This document shows, piece by piece, positions 35,464 through 62,121 of a DNA stretch of 64,000 bases (its first letter is position 1; every line of letters begins with the position of its first letter). The stretch is from NCBI GenBank assembly GCA_038065475.1, contig JBBTQY010000001.1, forward strand, positions 26,145 through 90,144, read 5' to 3'. Under the pieces are notes generated by a model. The model was not told where the DNA came from and searched no databases. It saw nothing but the letters and a program-made list of their open reading frames with translations. The position numbers and the translations under genes were made by a program. Source of the stretch: Patescibacteria group bacterium. Lineage in GTDB: Bacteria > Patescibacteriota > Minisyncoccia > Ryanbacterales > GWA2-47-10b.

Positions 35464-35661
35464 TTAGTGTAGCGAGATCAGCGAAGAAAACCAACCCGAG
35501 CGAATACCGCTACGCTCAAGACGTGCGAGCTGCCTCGTGAGCATGCGATGACGCTCAGCATCTTTGCGATATGGTCTGCCGCGTAAGATCTTGATATCAA
35601 TGCGATCATTGACCCGGCCAATCTCGTGAACGATGCTTTTGTGAAGTTGTGTTTTGCTCAT
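35464..35661 (-). CDS. hypothetical small basic protein in the lexA operon
   Basis: 65 aa, sandwiched between lexA and bcp with 5–10 nt gaps. Confidence 0.35.
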   Translation of the reverse strand: MSKTQLHKSIVHEIGRVNDRIDIKILRGRPYRKDAERHRMLTRQLARLERSGIRSGWFSSLISLH

Positions 35662-35670
35662 ATAGATGGG

Positions 35671-36240
35671 TTAGCGATATTTTCTGATAATGCCGGTTAC
35701 GACCGCGCCGATGTTGAGTGATTCTTCGGCAAATATTGGTTTGAAATTTCTATTTGCAGGCTCGAGATACGTAGCACCATTTTTCTTGCGTAAATATTTC
35801 ATGGTCCATCCGCCATCAACTTCAGCTATGACGATATCTCCCTCTTTCGCGGCTCTACCGTGCTCTGCTACTACCAAATCACCATCGCGTATACCTGCCT
35901 CAATCATCGAATCGCCTTTTACAGTCAGTACATACGTATGTTCGCGATTTCTGATCAAAAGTTGATCGATACTGATCATTTCGGCTGCTTCTTCGGCGAG
36001 CGACGGGATGCCAGCTTCTACTACACCAAGCATTTTAACTTCACCGAGCATGCTGGTGGGCACCAGGCGCCCTTGCGAATCTTTGTCGAGCACGCCCATC
36101 CCTATCAATTTATCAACTACTTTGGAGACAGCGTTTTTTGATTTGAAGCCCAATATGGCAGCAATCTCGCCATAACTTGGCATGCGCCGATTGCCTTCAT
36201 AAAAGTTTAAAATTTTTGATTTGTAACGCTCAATACTCAT
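35671..36240 (-). CDS. lexA: LexA repressor
   Basis: N-terminal winged HTH and C-terminal S24 peptidase domain (VKGDSMIEAGI, …KYLRK…). Internal Met MSIERYK taken as start. Confidence 0.85.
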   Translation of the reverse strand: MSIERYKSKILNFYEGNRRMPSYGEIAAILGFKSKNAVSKVVDKLIGMGVLDKDSQGRLVPTSMLGEVKMLGVVEAGIPSLAEEAAEMISIDQLLIRNREHTYVLTVKGDSMIEAGIRDGDLVVAEHGRAAKEGDIVIAEVDGGWTMKYLRKKNGATYLEPANRNFKPIFAEESLNIGAVVTGIIRKYR

Positions 36241-36253
36241 GCAATTATCATAA

Positions 36254-36269
36254 GTGAACGGTCGTTCAC
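36254..36269. promoter_or_regulatory. LexA box (Cheo-box type GAAC-N4-GTTC), autoregulatory
   Basis: Perfect palindrome GTGAACGGTCGTTCAC 14 nt upstream of the lexA start codon. Confidence 0.6.
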
Positions 36270-36380
36270 CGCGCAAGACGTAACACACAAAAAGTTGTGG
36301 ACAACTGCGTGTATCTTTACAAAAAAGCTCATGTGTGATTTGGTAAAGAAGAACCGCAACTTACAACGAAAGGAGCAGCG

Positions 36381-36497
36381 ATGCCTCACACAGATAGAGA
36401 ATCAGGCTCACCGTACGTGCGGCTCGCCGCCATTGTACTGGGAGTAGTGGTAGTTGCCTGTGTGGCTACTAGGGTCATCATGGCATTTGTGCGCTAG
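36381..36497 (+). CDS. tiny hydrophobic peptide 1 (38 aa)
   Basis: Hand-translated as MPHTDRESGSPYVRLAAIVLGVVVVACVATRVIMAFVR. AAAGGAG SD at 36374–36380. Confidence 0.35.
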   Translation: MPHTDRESGSPYVRLAAIVLGVVVVACVATRVIMAFVR

Positions 36498-36505
36498 GAG
36501 GAGAG

Positions 36506-36730
36506 ATGGCCGCAAAGGTCGTAAAACTCAATCCGGATCGATTTCGCCCCAAGCACGCCTCTGGCAAACCGAAGAGATGGAAACCCGTCAGCAACATGGT
36601 GGCGCGACGCAAGAAAGCCAAAGCGACAAAAGGCAGAGAGTTCTTTCTCTATGTACTGATCGCAGCACTCGTGTGCCTGATCCTTTCTGGCGTCACTCGA
36701 GATCTCTTTCCCCCGCTGTTCGGCCGCTGA
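36506..36730 (+). CDS. small basic protein with C-terminal TM (74 aa)
   Basis: GGAGGAGAG immediately upstream of the ATG. Lys/Arg-rich N-terminus, then a TM helix. Confidence 0.45.
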   Translation: MAAKVVKLNPDRFRPKHASGKPKRWKPVSNMVARRKKAKATKGREFFLYVLIAALVCLILSGVTRDLFPPLFGR

Positions 36731-36751
36731 TATATCACGGAGGACAATCGG

Positions 36752-36856
36752 ATGCACAAAGCGTACATTGTACCTTTGGTGATCGTCGTTGTCGGCTTCC
36801 TCTGGGTGAGACACGACTCGCGGCCGAGAGGCAAACGCGACGAGAATGACTCGTGA
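36752..36856 (+). CDS. tiny hydrophobic peptide 3 (34 aa)
   Basis: MHKAYIVPLVIVVVGFLWVRHDSRPRGKRDENDS, with a GGAGGA SD. Confidence 0.35.
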   Translation: MHKAYIVPLVIVVVGFLWVRHDSRPRGKRDENDS

Positions 36857-36863
36857 CTCTCGC

Positions 36864-36950
36864 AATGTGGGCAATGCTGTGCGCCACGACAGCGCAAGCA
36901 GCACTGCTCATCTACGCTTTCGTGAAAGACTGGCGCGACCCGCCGCCCTG
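36864..36950 (+). CDS. tiny hydrophobic peptide 4 (28 aa)
   Basis: MWAMLCATTAQAALLIYAFVKDWRDPPP, followed directly by a terminator. Confidence 0.3.
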
Positions 36951-36952
36951 AC

Positions 36953-36988
36953 CCCCAAGCACTCGATGCTTGGGGGGATTTTTTATTC
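36953..36988 (+). terminator. rho-independent terminator
   Basis: cccccaagcactcgatgcttgggggg hairpin followed by a TTTTTTAT run. Confidence 0.55.
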
Positions 36989-37013
36989 AGTATAAAATTC
37001 AGTATGTAGTTTT

Positions 37014-37186
37014 TCAGCGGCGATATAACGTAGCGAGATTTTCGCCCTCGAGCTGCAAGGCTACAGCTTCTTCGATATTCTTTGCAAGCTCATCGAGCGT
37101 AGACGCCTCTGTCACAACAGGCAAATCAACCCCTTCCGCCACATAAGAGTGTTCACCGCGCGTGATACGAAATTGGATGATATTTT
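37014..37186 (-). pseudogene. possible HicB/UPF0150-like antitoxin remnant
   Basis: Reverse-strand frame …FRITRGEHSYVAEGVDLPVVTEASTLDELAKNIEEAVALQLEGEN… resembles the HicB N-terminal domain but has no ATG; an in-frame TAA lies just upstream. Confidence 0.25.
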
Positions 37187-37299
37187 AATAACACAGTGCC
37201 TCTACGTAGACAAACAGCTATTTATATGGTACTAATAATACGAATTTGATCTTCAACAACGAGAACGAAAGTTCTCCTGACGGGAAAGGAAACACGAAA

Positions 37300-37866
37300 A
37301 TGAAAACGCAAAACGGACGACCGACCTGCAAGACAAACCTCTGGGCAGCGATCAACCACACGGCGATCCTACTCGCCTTCATCATCGGCTTCATCGCCGG
37401 CAGCATCGCCACCGCGCATGCCGAGGCGCTATGCCGACCCAAGAGCGGAGTAGCCGTGCGTGTGCGTACCGAATGCAAGAAGCAGGAAGTGCAGCTCGAC
37501 CCGATCACCCTCGGCCTGCAAGGCCCTGCTGGCCCCACCGGCCCGCAAGGTCCTGAAGGAATACTGCCAGCGGGCTTCCTCCCAACTCCGGCATTCGACA
37601 GCGGCTGGATCGAACTACCGAACCATGGCGCGGTCATCGATGTACCACACAACGTCGGAGGAGATTACAACGACTACTTCATCGAAGCCAGCTACAGACG
37701 GCCCGCTGAAAACGGTACGCTGAAATCTCATCAAACCGCAGCGGATGTTATCTGGTGGGAAGACGTGACACCAAATAACATCCAAATCGTCACAAATGGA
37801 GATGTGACGAACAACTTCGATGCAGCGCGTATCAGAATCTGGATCATTCACCAGGGCCAGCCCTGA
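37300..37866 (+). CDS. secreted protein with collagen-like (GXY)5 repeat
   Basis: Signal peptide, then GLQGPAGPTGPQGPEG, then a ~100-aa C-terminal β-rich domain. GC-rich. AAGGA SD-like element. Confidence 0.55.
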   Translation: MKTQNGRPTCKTNLWAAINHTAILLAFIIGFIAGSIATAHAEALCRPKSGVAVRVRTECKKQEVQLDPITLGLQGPAGPTGPQGPEGILPAGFLPTPAFDSGWIELPNHGAVIDVPHNVGGDYNDYFIEASYRRPAENGTLKSHQTAADVIWWEDVTPNNIQIVTNGDVTNNFDAARIRIWIIHQGQP

Positions 37867-37891
37867 CCATCGCGCACAGTGCGACACACGC

Positions 37892-37922
37892 CAACCGGCA
37901 ATACCGGCTGGCGATTTTTTTA
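37892..37922 (+). terminator. rho-independent terminator (bidirectional)
   Basis: caaccggcaataccggctgg hairpin plus a TTTTTTTAT run. Confidence 0.5.
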
Positions 37923-40339: not shown

Positions 40340-41569
40340 ATGCCTGAGGTGCTTGCGGTCGCTCTGCCGCTCTCGAAACTCGCGCGTGAACTCTACTTCA
40401 CCGATGTTTTTGACGTGCTCATGGTGACCATCATCATGTATGCGGGGCTCATGCTCTTTAAACGGACACGTTCAAACTCGGTCTTTGCGGGCATCGCCAT
40501 CGTGGTAGGTATCTACGCCGTCTCGCAAGTATTCAACCTCTATCTTACCTCACTCATACTGCGCGCATTCTTTGGCGTATTTATCGTAGTATTGGTAGTC
40601 ATTTTTCAAGACGAGCTGCGAAGATTTTTTGAATTTTTAGCTCTTCTCGGCACACGCCGTGAACAGCGCGATGAAGCCATGGCGGTCTCGCCCCTTATTA
40701 ATAGCCTGTTGCAGGCGGCAACCAACCTTGCGTACCGGAAGATTGGGGCACTCGTCATACTCAGTGGTATAGAAAACATTGACCGACATGTGGAAGGCGG
40801 ACGGGTGGTTGATGGTATCGTCTCACAAGAACTTTTGGAAAGTATTTTTGATCCCACCTCGCCCGGACACGATGGCGCTGTCATCATCAGACACAATCGT
40901 ATCGCTATGCTCGGCACTCATCTGCCACTCTCAAATGATTTTGAACAAATTGGTAAATATGGCACGCGACACGCCGCAGGCCTCGGTATCGCCGAGCGAT
41001 CTGATGCGCTCGCACTCATCGTCTCTGAAGAGCGGGGGCAGATCTCGATCGCGCAAAATGGTAAATTTGAAACCTTTGATGATATCAGCAAAGTAGAAGA
41101 TCGCCTGCGCGATTTCTTTCGCGTTAAATTCCCGCGCGAAGCGTCACCCGTGTGGCGCAATATTGTTCGCAGAAACACAAGCGAAAAAATAGGCGCACTC
41201 GCCATCTCGTCAGTCCTTTGGTTTTTCTTAGTATATCAAACGGGAACCGTGCGACGTGATTTTGTAGTCCCCATCACCTACCGCAATCTCAATGAGACAC
41301 TGGTGGTTGAAACCTCAAACCCCAAGGAGATCACTATCACACTCGAATCACGCGGACGCGCATTTGACCAGCTTGATCCTGCATCACTCGAGATACTGGT
41401 GGATGCCAGCGGCTTTACACCCGGTAAGAAAAAGCTTGTCATTGGTGACAACATGGTCAAACGGCCACTCACCTTCTCGGTCATCTCACTCTCACCACCC
41501 AACATTCAGCTGACTATCGGTAAATCTCCCGAAATACTAGAGACTGATTTGGCACCTCAGGGCCGCTAG
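40340..41569 (+). CDS. cdaA: diadenylate cyclase CdaA fused to a YbbR (CdaR-like) domain
   Basis: Three N-terminal TMs, then a DAC domain (DGAVIIRHNRI, GTRHAAGLGIAERSDALALIVSEERGQISIAQNGK). This is followed by an additional TM and a YbbR-like β domain (…ILVDASGFTPGKKKLVIGDNMV…). Confidence 0.8.
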   Translation: MPEVLAVALPLSKLARELYFTDVFDVLMVTIIMYAGLMLFKRTRSNSVFAGIAIVVGIYAVSQVFNLYLTSLILRAFFGVFIVVLVVIFQDELRRFFEFLALLGTRREQRDEAMAVSPLINSLLQAATNLAYRKIGALVILSGIENIDRHVEGGRVVDGIVSQELLESIFDPTSPGHDGAVIIRHNRIAMLGTHLPLSNDFEQIGKYGTRHAAGLGIAERSDALALIVSEERGQISIAQNGKFETFDDISKVEDRLRDFFRVKFPREASPVWRNIVRRNTSEKIGALAISSVLWFFLVYQTGTVRRDFVVPITYRNLNETLVVETSNPKEITITLESRGRAFDQLDPASLEILVDASGFTPGKKKLVIGDNMVKRPLTFSVISLSPPNIQLTIGKSPEILETDLAPQGR

Positions 41570-61164: not shown

Positions 61165-61644
61165 CTACGGCTTTGCCTGACGAGATTTGCGACGAGCCTC
61201 TCTAATGCTGTGCTTTGAGGTGCCCGCGATCCTGCGAACAGAGAGGTACTTTGGCAATTCCTTACCCTGAAGCTTTTGCTTGCGCCATTCCTGGAGACCG
61301 GACCGCAAGTTGTCAGCGTCAAGATCGCAGGCCGAACAGATATTCGCGAACGAATACGGCCAGGTGATGTTCTGAGATTCGATCCAAGCCTGAGCCTCAC
61401 GAAAAAGTCTTTGTCCACGGCGGTTGGAAGGAGCGGCAGACGCATATCTCTGGTAGGTAGCGATGGCATCAGTGAGCACGGCGAGCATAAGCCGCATCTC
61501 CGCCCTGTCTCGAATTGCAGAACTACCACTCTGCGAAACCCCACCAAAGAACTGGCCGGGAAGAATTGCATTGCCGCCGAAAATCGTCACCGCTGAACTA
61601 CTCGCAAGAATGCCGGCCACTCGCGCATGAGCAGACATCATCAC
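61165..61644 (-). CDS. hypothetical protein, paralog A (GC-rich island)
   Basis: Shares the LAVLxDAIAxxQ…AWxxS…WPYSFxxICS…LRxxLxxWR module with 61651..62121. GAGGAG SD. Confidence 0.45.
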   Translation of the reverse strand: MMMSAHARVAGILASSSAVTIFGGNAILPGQFFGGVSQSGSSAIRDRAEMRLMLAVLTDAIATYQRYASAAPSNRRGQRLFREAQAWIESQNITWPYSFANICSACDLDADNLRSGLQEWRKQKLQGKELPKYLSVRRIAGTSKHSIREARRKSRQAKP

Positions 61645-61650
61645 CTCCTC

Positions 61651-62121
61651 TTAGTCACGAGCTTGAACAGAATGTCGATGTACTCGGTTAGCACGCCGCG
61701 GCGTACGAGGAACGGGCAGGACAATCATCCGACGCCACTTCCAAAGATTTTGACGTAGCTCCGTGGAGTCGAATCCGAAAAGACTGCAGATACTCTCAAA
61801 GGAGTAGGGCCACGAGCAATCGCGCGAGGTAAACCATGCACTCACCTCTTCGAACTGCTGCTTATCTCTTCGCCCAAACGCGCAAGCATGCAGCTGGAAG
61901 AGAGCAATCGCGTCTTCAAGTACCGCCAGCGCCAAACGGTATTCCCCCGAAAGATCGTCAACACCCACTTCGATACCTTGTGCGAATGTACCGAAGAAAA
62001 CCTCGGGCGGAACCCAGTCGGGTTCTAAGAGGCCCTCAACCCCATCCCGAGAAAAGACATTTCCGTACGTGTTGCCGAACCCCCGCTGTACCATGTTGGA
62101 AATAACGCCGATACGAACCAT
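61651..62121 (-). CDS. hypothetical protein, paralog B (GC-rich island)
   Basis: Same conserved module as paralog A. GGGGGAGGG SD. Confidence 0.45.
   Translation of the reverse strand: MVRIGVISNMVQRGFGNTYGNVFSRDGVEGLLEPDWVPPEVFFGTFAQGIEVGVDDLSGEYRLALAVLEDAIALFQLHACAFGRRDKQQFEEVSAWFTSRDCSWPYSFESICSLFGFDSTELRQNLWKWRRMIVLPVPRTPRRANRVHRHSVQARD

Follow-up and report, generated by a model that had tools for sequence, protein, structure and literature searches.

A four-gene cassette of predicted membrane micro-proteins divergent from lexA in a Patescibacteria genome

The core SOS regulon of Gram-positive bacteria includes a cell division inhibitor (PMC7739468). YneA of Bacillus subtilis and Listeria, ChiZ of Mycobacterium tuberculosis, DivS of Corynebacterium glutamicum, and SosA of Staphylococcus aureus (77 amino acids, aa) are SOS division inhibitors whose genes are divergent from lexA, and such single-pass proteins, unrelated in sequence, adjoin lexA in Bacillus, Listeria, Mycobacterium, Corynebacterium, and Staphylococcus (PMC6851548). 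Since YneA, ChiZ, DivS, and SosA have little or no similarity to one another, the class is defined by position, not by homology. Here, we describe a cassette of four very small genes, p1 to p4, that lies divergent from lexA in a 64-kb stretch of DNA (the window) from a Patescibacteria group bacterium. A 0.1-µm-filtered Hainich groundwater metagenome (Hain_H41_01um) yielded the 347-kb contig to which the window belongs, and NCBI holds the same genes in a metagenome-assembled genome (MAG) named “Patescibacteria group bacterium” (AAB367_00265, AAB367_00275, and AAB367_00285).

Two further groups of small membrane peptides linked to DNA damage bear on this locus. In Caulobacter crescentus, SidA (29 aa) and DidA (71 aa) are reportedly DNA-damage-induced, hydrophobic inner-membrane proteins that bind late divisome proteins (FtsW/FtsN) and so block division (Modell et al., 2011); SidA shows that peptides this small can inhibit division. 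The TisB/IstR-1 and DinQ/AgrB type I toxin-antitoxin pairs of Escherichia coli involve LexA-linked, hydrophobic inner-membrane peptides of about 27 to 29 aa. These loci have a LexA box that overlaps the promoter of the toxin, a translationally inert primary transcript that needs processing, a dedicated antisense small RNA (sRNA), and a monocistronic toxin gene. The yneA transcription unit, for its part, is also an operon, yneA-yneB-ynzC.

The cassette of the window has the following features (ORF, open reading frame; SD, Shine-Dalgarno sequence; UTR, untranslated region; nt, nucleotides).

36307-36380, plus strand: cassette-specific upstream region (promoter and/or 5'UTR), 91% identical to that of a second copy of the cassette (L089, see below)
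36381-36497, plus strand: p1, 38 aa; SD AAGGAG at 36370-36375, 5 nt before the ATG
36506-36730, plus strand: p2, 74 aa; SD AGGAGG, 4 nt before the start; NCBI AAB367_00275
36752-36856, plus strand: p3, 34 aa; SD GGAGG, 8 nt before the start
36853-36951, plus strand: p4, 32 aa; GTG start overlapping the p3 stop (GTGA), no SD
36952-36985, plus strand only: intrinsic terminator; 10-bp GC-rich stem at 36952-36976, T-run to 36985

Statistical and comparative evidence shows that 36381-36951 is a real four-cistron operon (p1-p2-p3-p4), ended by a strong terminator and divergent from lexA, as the first-pass annotation of this DNA had supposed for its mini-ORFs. We generated 20,000 dinucleotide-preserving shuffles of 36290-36990 and scored small ORFs (sORFs) consisting of an SD, an ATG, and 25 to 90 codons with a hydrophobic stretch. 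None of the shuffles gave two or more scored sORFs and 8 gave one, against the three observed; just one further SD-preceded, ATG-started hydrophobic sORF occurs in the whole window on both strands. All four genes are retained in the second copy with a ratio of nonsynonymous to synonymous substitution rates (dN/dS) below 0.5. The terminator was also borne out: its fold has a z-score of -3.25 and is conserved in the second copy. Automated gene calls capture the operon poorly, with none of the four genes in the ENA call on the source contig, p1 and p2 called by Prodigal on the Logan assembly, and p2 alone called by NCBI.

The composition and translation signals of the cassette set it apart from its host. 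It was rightly described as GC rich, with 54 to 57% GC versus about 47% around it; its GC content at third codon positions (GC3) is 0.5 to 0.7 versus 0.45 in the host, and its host-codon score is low. The host mostly dispenses with SDs: 35 of 38 long ORFs have none, and 12 of 13 neighboring called genes lack a correctly spaced one. Several neighboring host genes look leaderless, and SD-less and leaderless starts predominate. The strong SDs of the cassette are thus an outlier for this host. Three of the mini-ORFs (p1 to p3) have the SD and the length originally assigned to them, 38, 74, and 34 aa. The fourth, read before as an SD-preceded ORF of 28 aa, has no SD and most likely starts at the GTG at 36853, giving 32 aa; the second copy has ATGA in the same place. 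The start/stop overlap indicates that p4 is translationally coupled to p3.

Judged by their hydropathy, p1 to p4 are single-pass membrane micro-proteins. The products of p1 to p3 contain one 17-residue stretch each with a mean Kyte-Doolittle hydropathy of 2.25 to 2.76. In p1, a polar N terminus of 14 residues precedes a hydrophobic helix (residues ~15 to 37) that reaches the C terminus; p3 begins with a hydrophobic helix and continues into a charged tail (RHDSRPRGKRDENDS); and p4, as read from the sequence, consists of one moderately hydrophobic helix, ending in KDWRDPPP. The view that each peptide is largely one helix with a few charges fits these three, but p2 departs from it. Its N-terminal domain of 45 residues is rich in Lys, Arg, and Pro and carries a net charge of about +14, followed by a hydrophobic helix (residues ~46 to 66) and a short tail. 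The basic and proline positions of this domain are kept in the p2 homologue of the second copy.

That second copy lies on L089, a 920-nt metagenomic contig (ENA ERZ27297344) that carries this homologue, P0037 (72 aa, ~46 to 47% identity, E 5e-8). P0037 was the sole p2 homologue found by HMMER among 1.84 billion representatives; against 5.8 billion clustered proteins, p2 matched itself alone, and a profile built from p2 and P0037 recovered those two proteins alone. The cassette family has two members among ~15 billion proteins. L089 comprises the first lexA codons, an identical operator, the intergenic region, p1' to p4', and the terminator. All four ORFs and their SDs are retained on it, as are the position of the p1 stop within the p2 SD and the p3/p4 overlap, which is ATGA there and GTGA in the window. 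Amino acid identities are 84% for p1, 47% for p2, 59% for p3, and 72% for p4, with dN/dS of 0.42, 0.35, 0.23, and 0.33 and dS of ~0.2, ~1.1, ~1.2, and ~0.5, respectively. Indels inside the ORFs are multiples of 3, while indels of 2 and 8 nt are confined to the 5'UTR and the p2-p3 spacer. In the window, p2 and p3 share one frame, which they do not in L089; they are therefore separate genes and not one read-through gene.

Divergence between the two copies is uneven. Nucleotide identity is 90 to 94% over the upstream region and p1, 60% in p2, 34% in the p2-p3 spacer, 70% in p3, 81% in p4, and 80% in the terminator; past the terminator, the sequences are unrelated (28%). The adjacency of cassette and lexA promoter is thus kept in both lineages, whereas the other flank differs. 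The 140-nt intergenic region is 91 to 94% identical, far more conserved than the neutral p2-p3 spacer, which is saturated at 34%. Divergence at silent sites (pS) is 0.18 for the 5'UTR plus p1 versus 0.57 to 0.60 for p2 and p3 (Fisher p = 3e-4). This mosaic may reflect constraint at the nucleotide level on a regulatory element formed by the 5'UTR and p1, or a recombination breakpoint between p1 and p2.

The cassette is lineage specific. Neither p1 to p4 nor ORFs in alternative frames have homologues at 80 lexA loci of relatives (tblastn), there are no cassette paralogues within the window, and DNA-pattern scans of JGI metagenome contigs (two passes) and of IMG/VR yielded no further copies. No significant match to p1 to p4 was found in Pfam, PHROGs, NCBIfam, or PADLOC, and none in a sequence search of the PDB; Rfam gave no match at gathering thresholds and noise alone at E values up to 5. 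Two candidate relationships were discarded: weak paralogue matches near 62.5 kb reflect transmembrane composition inside a DedA-like gene, and the resemblance of p3 to NF045534 (“EYxxD small membrane protein”) scores 16.4 bits against a cutoff of 29.

The features on the other side of the intergenic region are as follows.

35671-36240, minus strand: lexA, 189 aa; S24 peptidase with a winged-helix DNA-binding N-terminal domain
36247-36276, minus strand: lexA promoter, read from the sequence; -10 TATGAT at 36247-36252, -35 TTGCGC at 36271-36276
36254-36269: LexA operator GTGAACGGTCGTTCAC, occupying the 18-nt spacer between the lexA -35 and -10
36296-36304, minus strand: DnaA-box-like 9-mer TTGTCCACA, inside the palindrome AGTTGTGGACAACT (36293-36306)

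By its domains and catalytic residues, the product of 35671-36240 is the LexA repressor. It matches Pfam Peptidase_S24 (E 4e-25) and, weakly, LexA_DNA_bind (E 0.049), reaches 110.3 bits against the NCBIfam model TIGR00498 (cutoff 110.95), and contains a readable Ala-Gly cleavage site (VEAG), the GDSM serine, and the TMKYL lysine. In a search of 185,579 species genomes, the closest LexA proteins were 50 to 63% identical and came from Paceibacteria-type MAGs (Taylorbacteria, Zambryskibacteria, and Kaiserbacteria), in line with the earlier premise that the host has a reduced genome. The -10 ends 6 nt ahead of the lexA ATG; therefore, the lexA mRNA is probably leaderless. The same spacing occurs in the relatives L006, L018, L053, and L054.

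To place the operator, we compared 52 related loci with an orthologous lexA promoter, all of which share the layout of -35, box, and -10. The palindrome GTGAAC-N4-GTTCAC (up to 2 mismatches) is present in ~48 of the 52, once per locus (8.5 kb), and its site is invariably the spacer of the promoter that drives lexA or a two-gene p65-lexA operon. A matrix trained on the 52 orthologous LexA-box sites (training median, 29 bits) scored the window operator at 23.2 bits, the top match in the window. We conclude from this conservation that the GAAC-N4-GTTC palindrome noted before, located 14 nt upstream of the lexA ATG (36240, minus strand) and identical in L089, is a genuine, clade-conserved LexA operator of the Gram-positive/Patescibacteria type that serves lexA autoregulation. 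The Patescibacteria SOS network, said to have been described by Sanchez-Osuna, Barbe, and Erill in 2017, reportedly involves a LexA that autoregulates lexA through a Gram-positive-type palindromic motif; the window operator is of that type.

Further boxes in the window are weaker. The runners-up score 11.3 bits (37261-37276) and 9.8 bits (40386-40401, within the cdaA coding region). The former site holds another perfect GAAC-N4-GTTC palindrome (GAGAACGAAAGTTCTC); the next plus-strand gene, which we call col, has its ATG 24 nt downstream. This palindrome does not have the conserved GT/AC flanks or the -35/-10 context, and col homologues elsewhere do not have such a palindrome. It is probably a weak or chance match.

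The conserved lexA promoter contains one more element. With at most 1 mismatch, TTATCCACA occurs upstream of the -35 in 47 of the 52 relatives, which do not have the cassette, against a background of 0.027 per 60 nt. This DnaA-box-like 9-mer sits ~9 to 10 nt upstream of the -35 and ~15 to 35 nt upstream of the LexA box (L004-L065), and in a few loci it is one helical turn further from the -35. The full architecture in relatives reads AGTTATCCACA-N9/10-TTGACA-N-GTGAAC-N4-GTTCAC-N-TATACT. The distribution of the element assigns it to the lexA promoter and not to the cassette, and the arrangement suggests an input of DnaA, or of some other factor, into the transcription of lexA. In E. coli, uvrB is coregulated by DnaA and LexA (PMC6015884); our literature search found no earlier report of a DnaA-box-like element at a lexA promoter. 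As 36277-36306 is part of the conserved lexA promoter, cassette-specific DNA begins at ~36307. A candidate cassette -35 at 36295 (TTGTGG) was rejected, being this same lexA promoter element, conserved in relatives without the cassette.

Among described systems, the YneA/ChiZ/DivS/SosA class offers the best match to the cassette in position and architecture. As in that class, the genes lie beside lexA and divergent from it (p1 ATG at 36381, plus strand; lexA ATG at 36240, minus strand; likewise in L089), the products are small with a single membrane segment, here predicted from hydropathy, and the shared intergenic region holds an operator of the GAAC-N4-GTTC type. In contrast, the class has one inhibitor gene where the cassette has four tandem micro-proteins, three of at most 38 aa; the one operator of the cassette sits on the lexA promoter; and the host belongs to the Patescibacteria (candidate phyla radiation, CPR). 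The extracellular C-terminal part of the class, usually a LysM domain (absent in DivS and SosA), has no counterpart: p1 to p4 have no Pfam domain, p1 stops where its helix does, and the helices of the other three are followed by tails of only 8 to 15 residues. In p2, the large domain is N-terminal and basic, with a predicted cytoplasmic location. SidA and DidA are close in size to p1, p3, and p4 and to p2, respectively; they are single genes not beside lexA, DidA is LexA independent, and neither resembles p1 to p4 in sequence.

On this analogy, we favor, with a probability of about 0.42, the reading that the cassette is linked to DNA damage: its products would form a membrane effector or checkpoint module comparable to the small, single-pass division inhibitors of the SOS response encoded divergently from lexA. 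DNA damage would lead to RecA-stimulated self-cleavage of LexA, freeing the shared control region, whereupon p1 to p4 would be synthesized and would enter the membrane. The positive-inside rule predicts an inner N terminus for p2, which its C-terminal helix would anchor, and an inner charged tail for p3. Machinery embedded in the membrane, such as late divisome proteins, might be the target, or else the integrity of the membrane, and growth or division would be paused.

As to whether the cassette shares control with lexA, the evidence points both ways. The single operator is sited to repress lexA, and 112 nt separate its near edge (36269) from the p1 ATG. A promoter search of the intergenic region found no convincing cassette promoter overlapping the operator: of three weak candidates, two lie 26 to 70 nt or more past the box, and the third (TTGTAA-16-TGcAATTAT) starts inside the operator but would place its -35 in the lexA coding region. 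In none of the ~52 relatives is the box shared with a divergent gene, so the adjacency of cassette and lexA could be an insertion accident. Most relatives have a co-directional gene ending 30 to 130 nt upstream of the box, and those with a long gap there have no analogous divergent sORFs. The absence of a LysM or extracellular domain like that of YneA and ChiZ, and the predicted cytoplasmic location of most of p2, also speak against the reading, as does the presence of p65, a conserved gene of the clade in a LexA-controlled operon that could itself be the SOS effector. In favor of coupling, the cassette stays beside the lexA promoter in both lineages while the other flank differs, and the intergenic region is far better conserved than the spacer. 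The proposal that the cassette shares the LexA-box region of lexA thus stands as to divergent adjacency, in two lineages, and falls short as to a cassette promoter overlapping the box. Control of the cassette by DNA damage is a plausible proposal.

A more specific version of the damage-linked module is unlikely. Here, the cassette would be a Patescibacteria-specific SOS module of four LexA-controlled micro-proteins that jointly arrest division or growth, with a fast-evolving p2-p3 core (possibly effector and modulator) and a control region, the 5'UTR and p1, conserved at the nucleotide level.

The main alternative, which we consider only slightly less probable, is that the cassette is accessory or mobile cargo unrelated to SOS. 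Horizontal transfer would have brought an operon for small membrane proteins into the gap upstream of the lexA promoter, with a promoter of its own; its products could be, for instance, holin-like, superinfection-exclusion, immunity, or abortive-infection peptides. The atypical GC3 and codon usage of the cassette look foreign, its strong SDs stand in a host whose long ORFs mostly have none, and its spread is very narrow, with two contigs found and none among JGI metagenome contigs or IMG/VR. The DNA alongside the cassette is variable: it holds a hicB-like fragment that has no start codon, and col, whose homologues occur in mobile and restriction-modification contexts elsewhere. This fits cargo as well and, together with the foreign-looking GC3, counts against the damage-linked module. 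Divergence of the p2-p3 core greatly outpaces that of its flanks, a pattern seen in polymorphic toxin/immunity or phage loci, and the operator does not cover any plausible cassette promoter. Yet no integrase, endolysin, phage, or transposase gene and no flanking repeats were found, and there is no PHROG or PADLOC match. For a phage lysis cassette in particular, no endolysin or phage gene lies within ±5 kb, and no PHROG match has E <0.04. The linkage to the lexA control region, preserved while the other flank changed, is a further point against cargo.

The first-pass annotation had favored SOS-induced toxins of the TisB type. In that scheme, tandem LexA-induced type I toxins would depolarize the membrane and lead to dormancy, each checked by an antisense RNA. 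Real small membrane genes do lie beside a real operator, p1 (38 aa), p3 (34 aa), and p4 (32 aa) are single-helix peptides of less than 60 aa (p2, at 74 aa, is not), and the 5'UTR and p1 are unusually conserved in nucleotide sequence, as a region of RNA-RNA interaction would be. The type I features themselves were not found: the cassette has neither the promoter-overlapping box, the inert transcript, the antisense sRNA, nor the monocistronic layout of the TisB and DinQ loci. Computationally, the expected antisense signals opposite the peptides did not emerge, as there is no conserved antisense promoter or terminator, promoter-like sites on the minus strand (36795 and 36460) are not kept in L089, and Rfam has no match. 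The 5'UTR folds no better than shuffled sequences (z-scores of -0.27 and -0.36), and the SDs are unpaired in predicted folds. The operon is polycistronic and translationally coupled, whereas type I loci known to date are monocistronic; p2 carries its basic domain of 45 aa; no Pfam or NCBIfam toxin family is matched; and the operator does not lie over a recognizable cassette promoter. We therefore consider this scheme quite improbable. As for the other suggestion, a bacteriocin-like system, a leader motif is missing, and the genes nearby include none for a transporter or for modification.

That there are no genes here, but chance ORFs in a GC-rich spacer or decayed fragments of membrane proteins, is hardly credible: host-trained codon scores do not favor the p3 and p4 frames (host codon statistics could not separate frames because the cassette is compositionally atypical) and the ENA call found none of the four, but the shuffle test and the retention of all ORFs, starts, stops, and SDs at dS ~1, with dN/dS below 0.5 and frame-preserving indels, contradict it, and the alternative ORFs (131 aa, plus strand; 136 aa, minus strand) have no homologues or family matches and are not kept in L089.

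Several neighboring genes deserve a description. The p65 gene (35464-35661, minus strand) encodes a protein of 60 to 70 aa that stands beside lexA in ~40 of the ~55 relatives used for this count (L004-L065). It has a conserved core, LN..ID.KI..G..Y..EA.RHK.L, and a hydrophobic C-terminal tail (SGWF...), and no match in Pfam, NCBIfam, PHROGs, or PADLOC. Usually, p65 precedes lexA in a shared, LexA-boxed operon; in the window, p65 follows lexA. We regard it as a candidate for the conserved SOS effector of the clade.

Downstream of the cassette, a HicB/DUF1902-like antitoxin frame (…IQFRITRGEHSYVAEGVDLPVVTEASTLDELAKNIEEAVALQLEGE…; 37014-37184, minus strand) lacks both a canonical start ahead of the domain and a hicA partner. 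Probably a remnant, it marks 36990-37900 as a variable region. The col gene (37300-37866, plus strand) encodes a collagen-repeat surface protein with a signal or anchor helix, a short G-X-Y stretch resembling collagen, and, at the C terminus, a conserved domain of ~95 aa, for which AlphaFold confidently predicts a beta-sandwich (pLDDT 80 to 94) without a significant PDB match. Its ~30 homologues vary in the number of collagen repeats, and their contexts include recombinase/ParB-methylase genes or a type I restriction system. Two candidate links between these regions were dropped. A tandem duplication, with later divergence, as the origin of the cassette and the col unit was suggested only by repeats of 11 to 18 nt that are compatible with chance, and the 11-mer GTTCACCGCGC (36264 and 37151), considered as an insertion duplication, has its second copy inside the hicB-like frame. 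Elsewhere in the window, two SD-preceded ORFs on the minus strand, 61165-61644 (159 aa) and 61651-62121 (156 aa), look like tandem paralogues, with the motifs LAVL.DAIA..Q and SWPYSF..IC in common.

Small membrane proteins are under-annotated, and this locus illustrates it: of four genes, ENA, Prodigal, and NCBI called 0, 2, and 1, respectively. If the cassette is unrelated to SOS, it would be an ordinary lineage-specific orphan operon, and the more general results would be the conserved lexA promoter with its DnaA-box-like element and the p65 partner gene. Cell cycle control in Patescibacteria is essentially unknown. Should the four-component SOS module prove true, it would be the first multi-peptide DNA damage checkpoint and the first SOS effector described in CPR bacteria. 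If the cassette is damage induced, the rule that a tiny single-pass SOS checkpoint protein is encoded next to lexA would hold not just in Firmicutes and Actinobacteria but also in the ultra-small Patescibacteria with their reduced genomes, and the checkpoint role would be divisible among several peptides.

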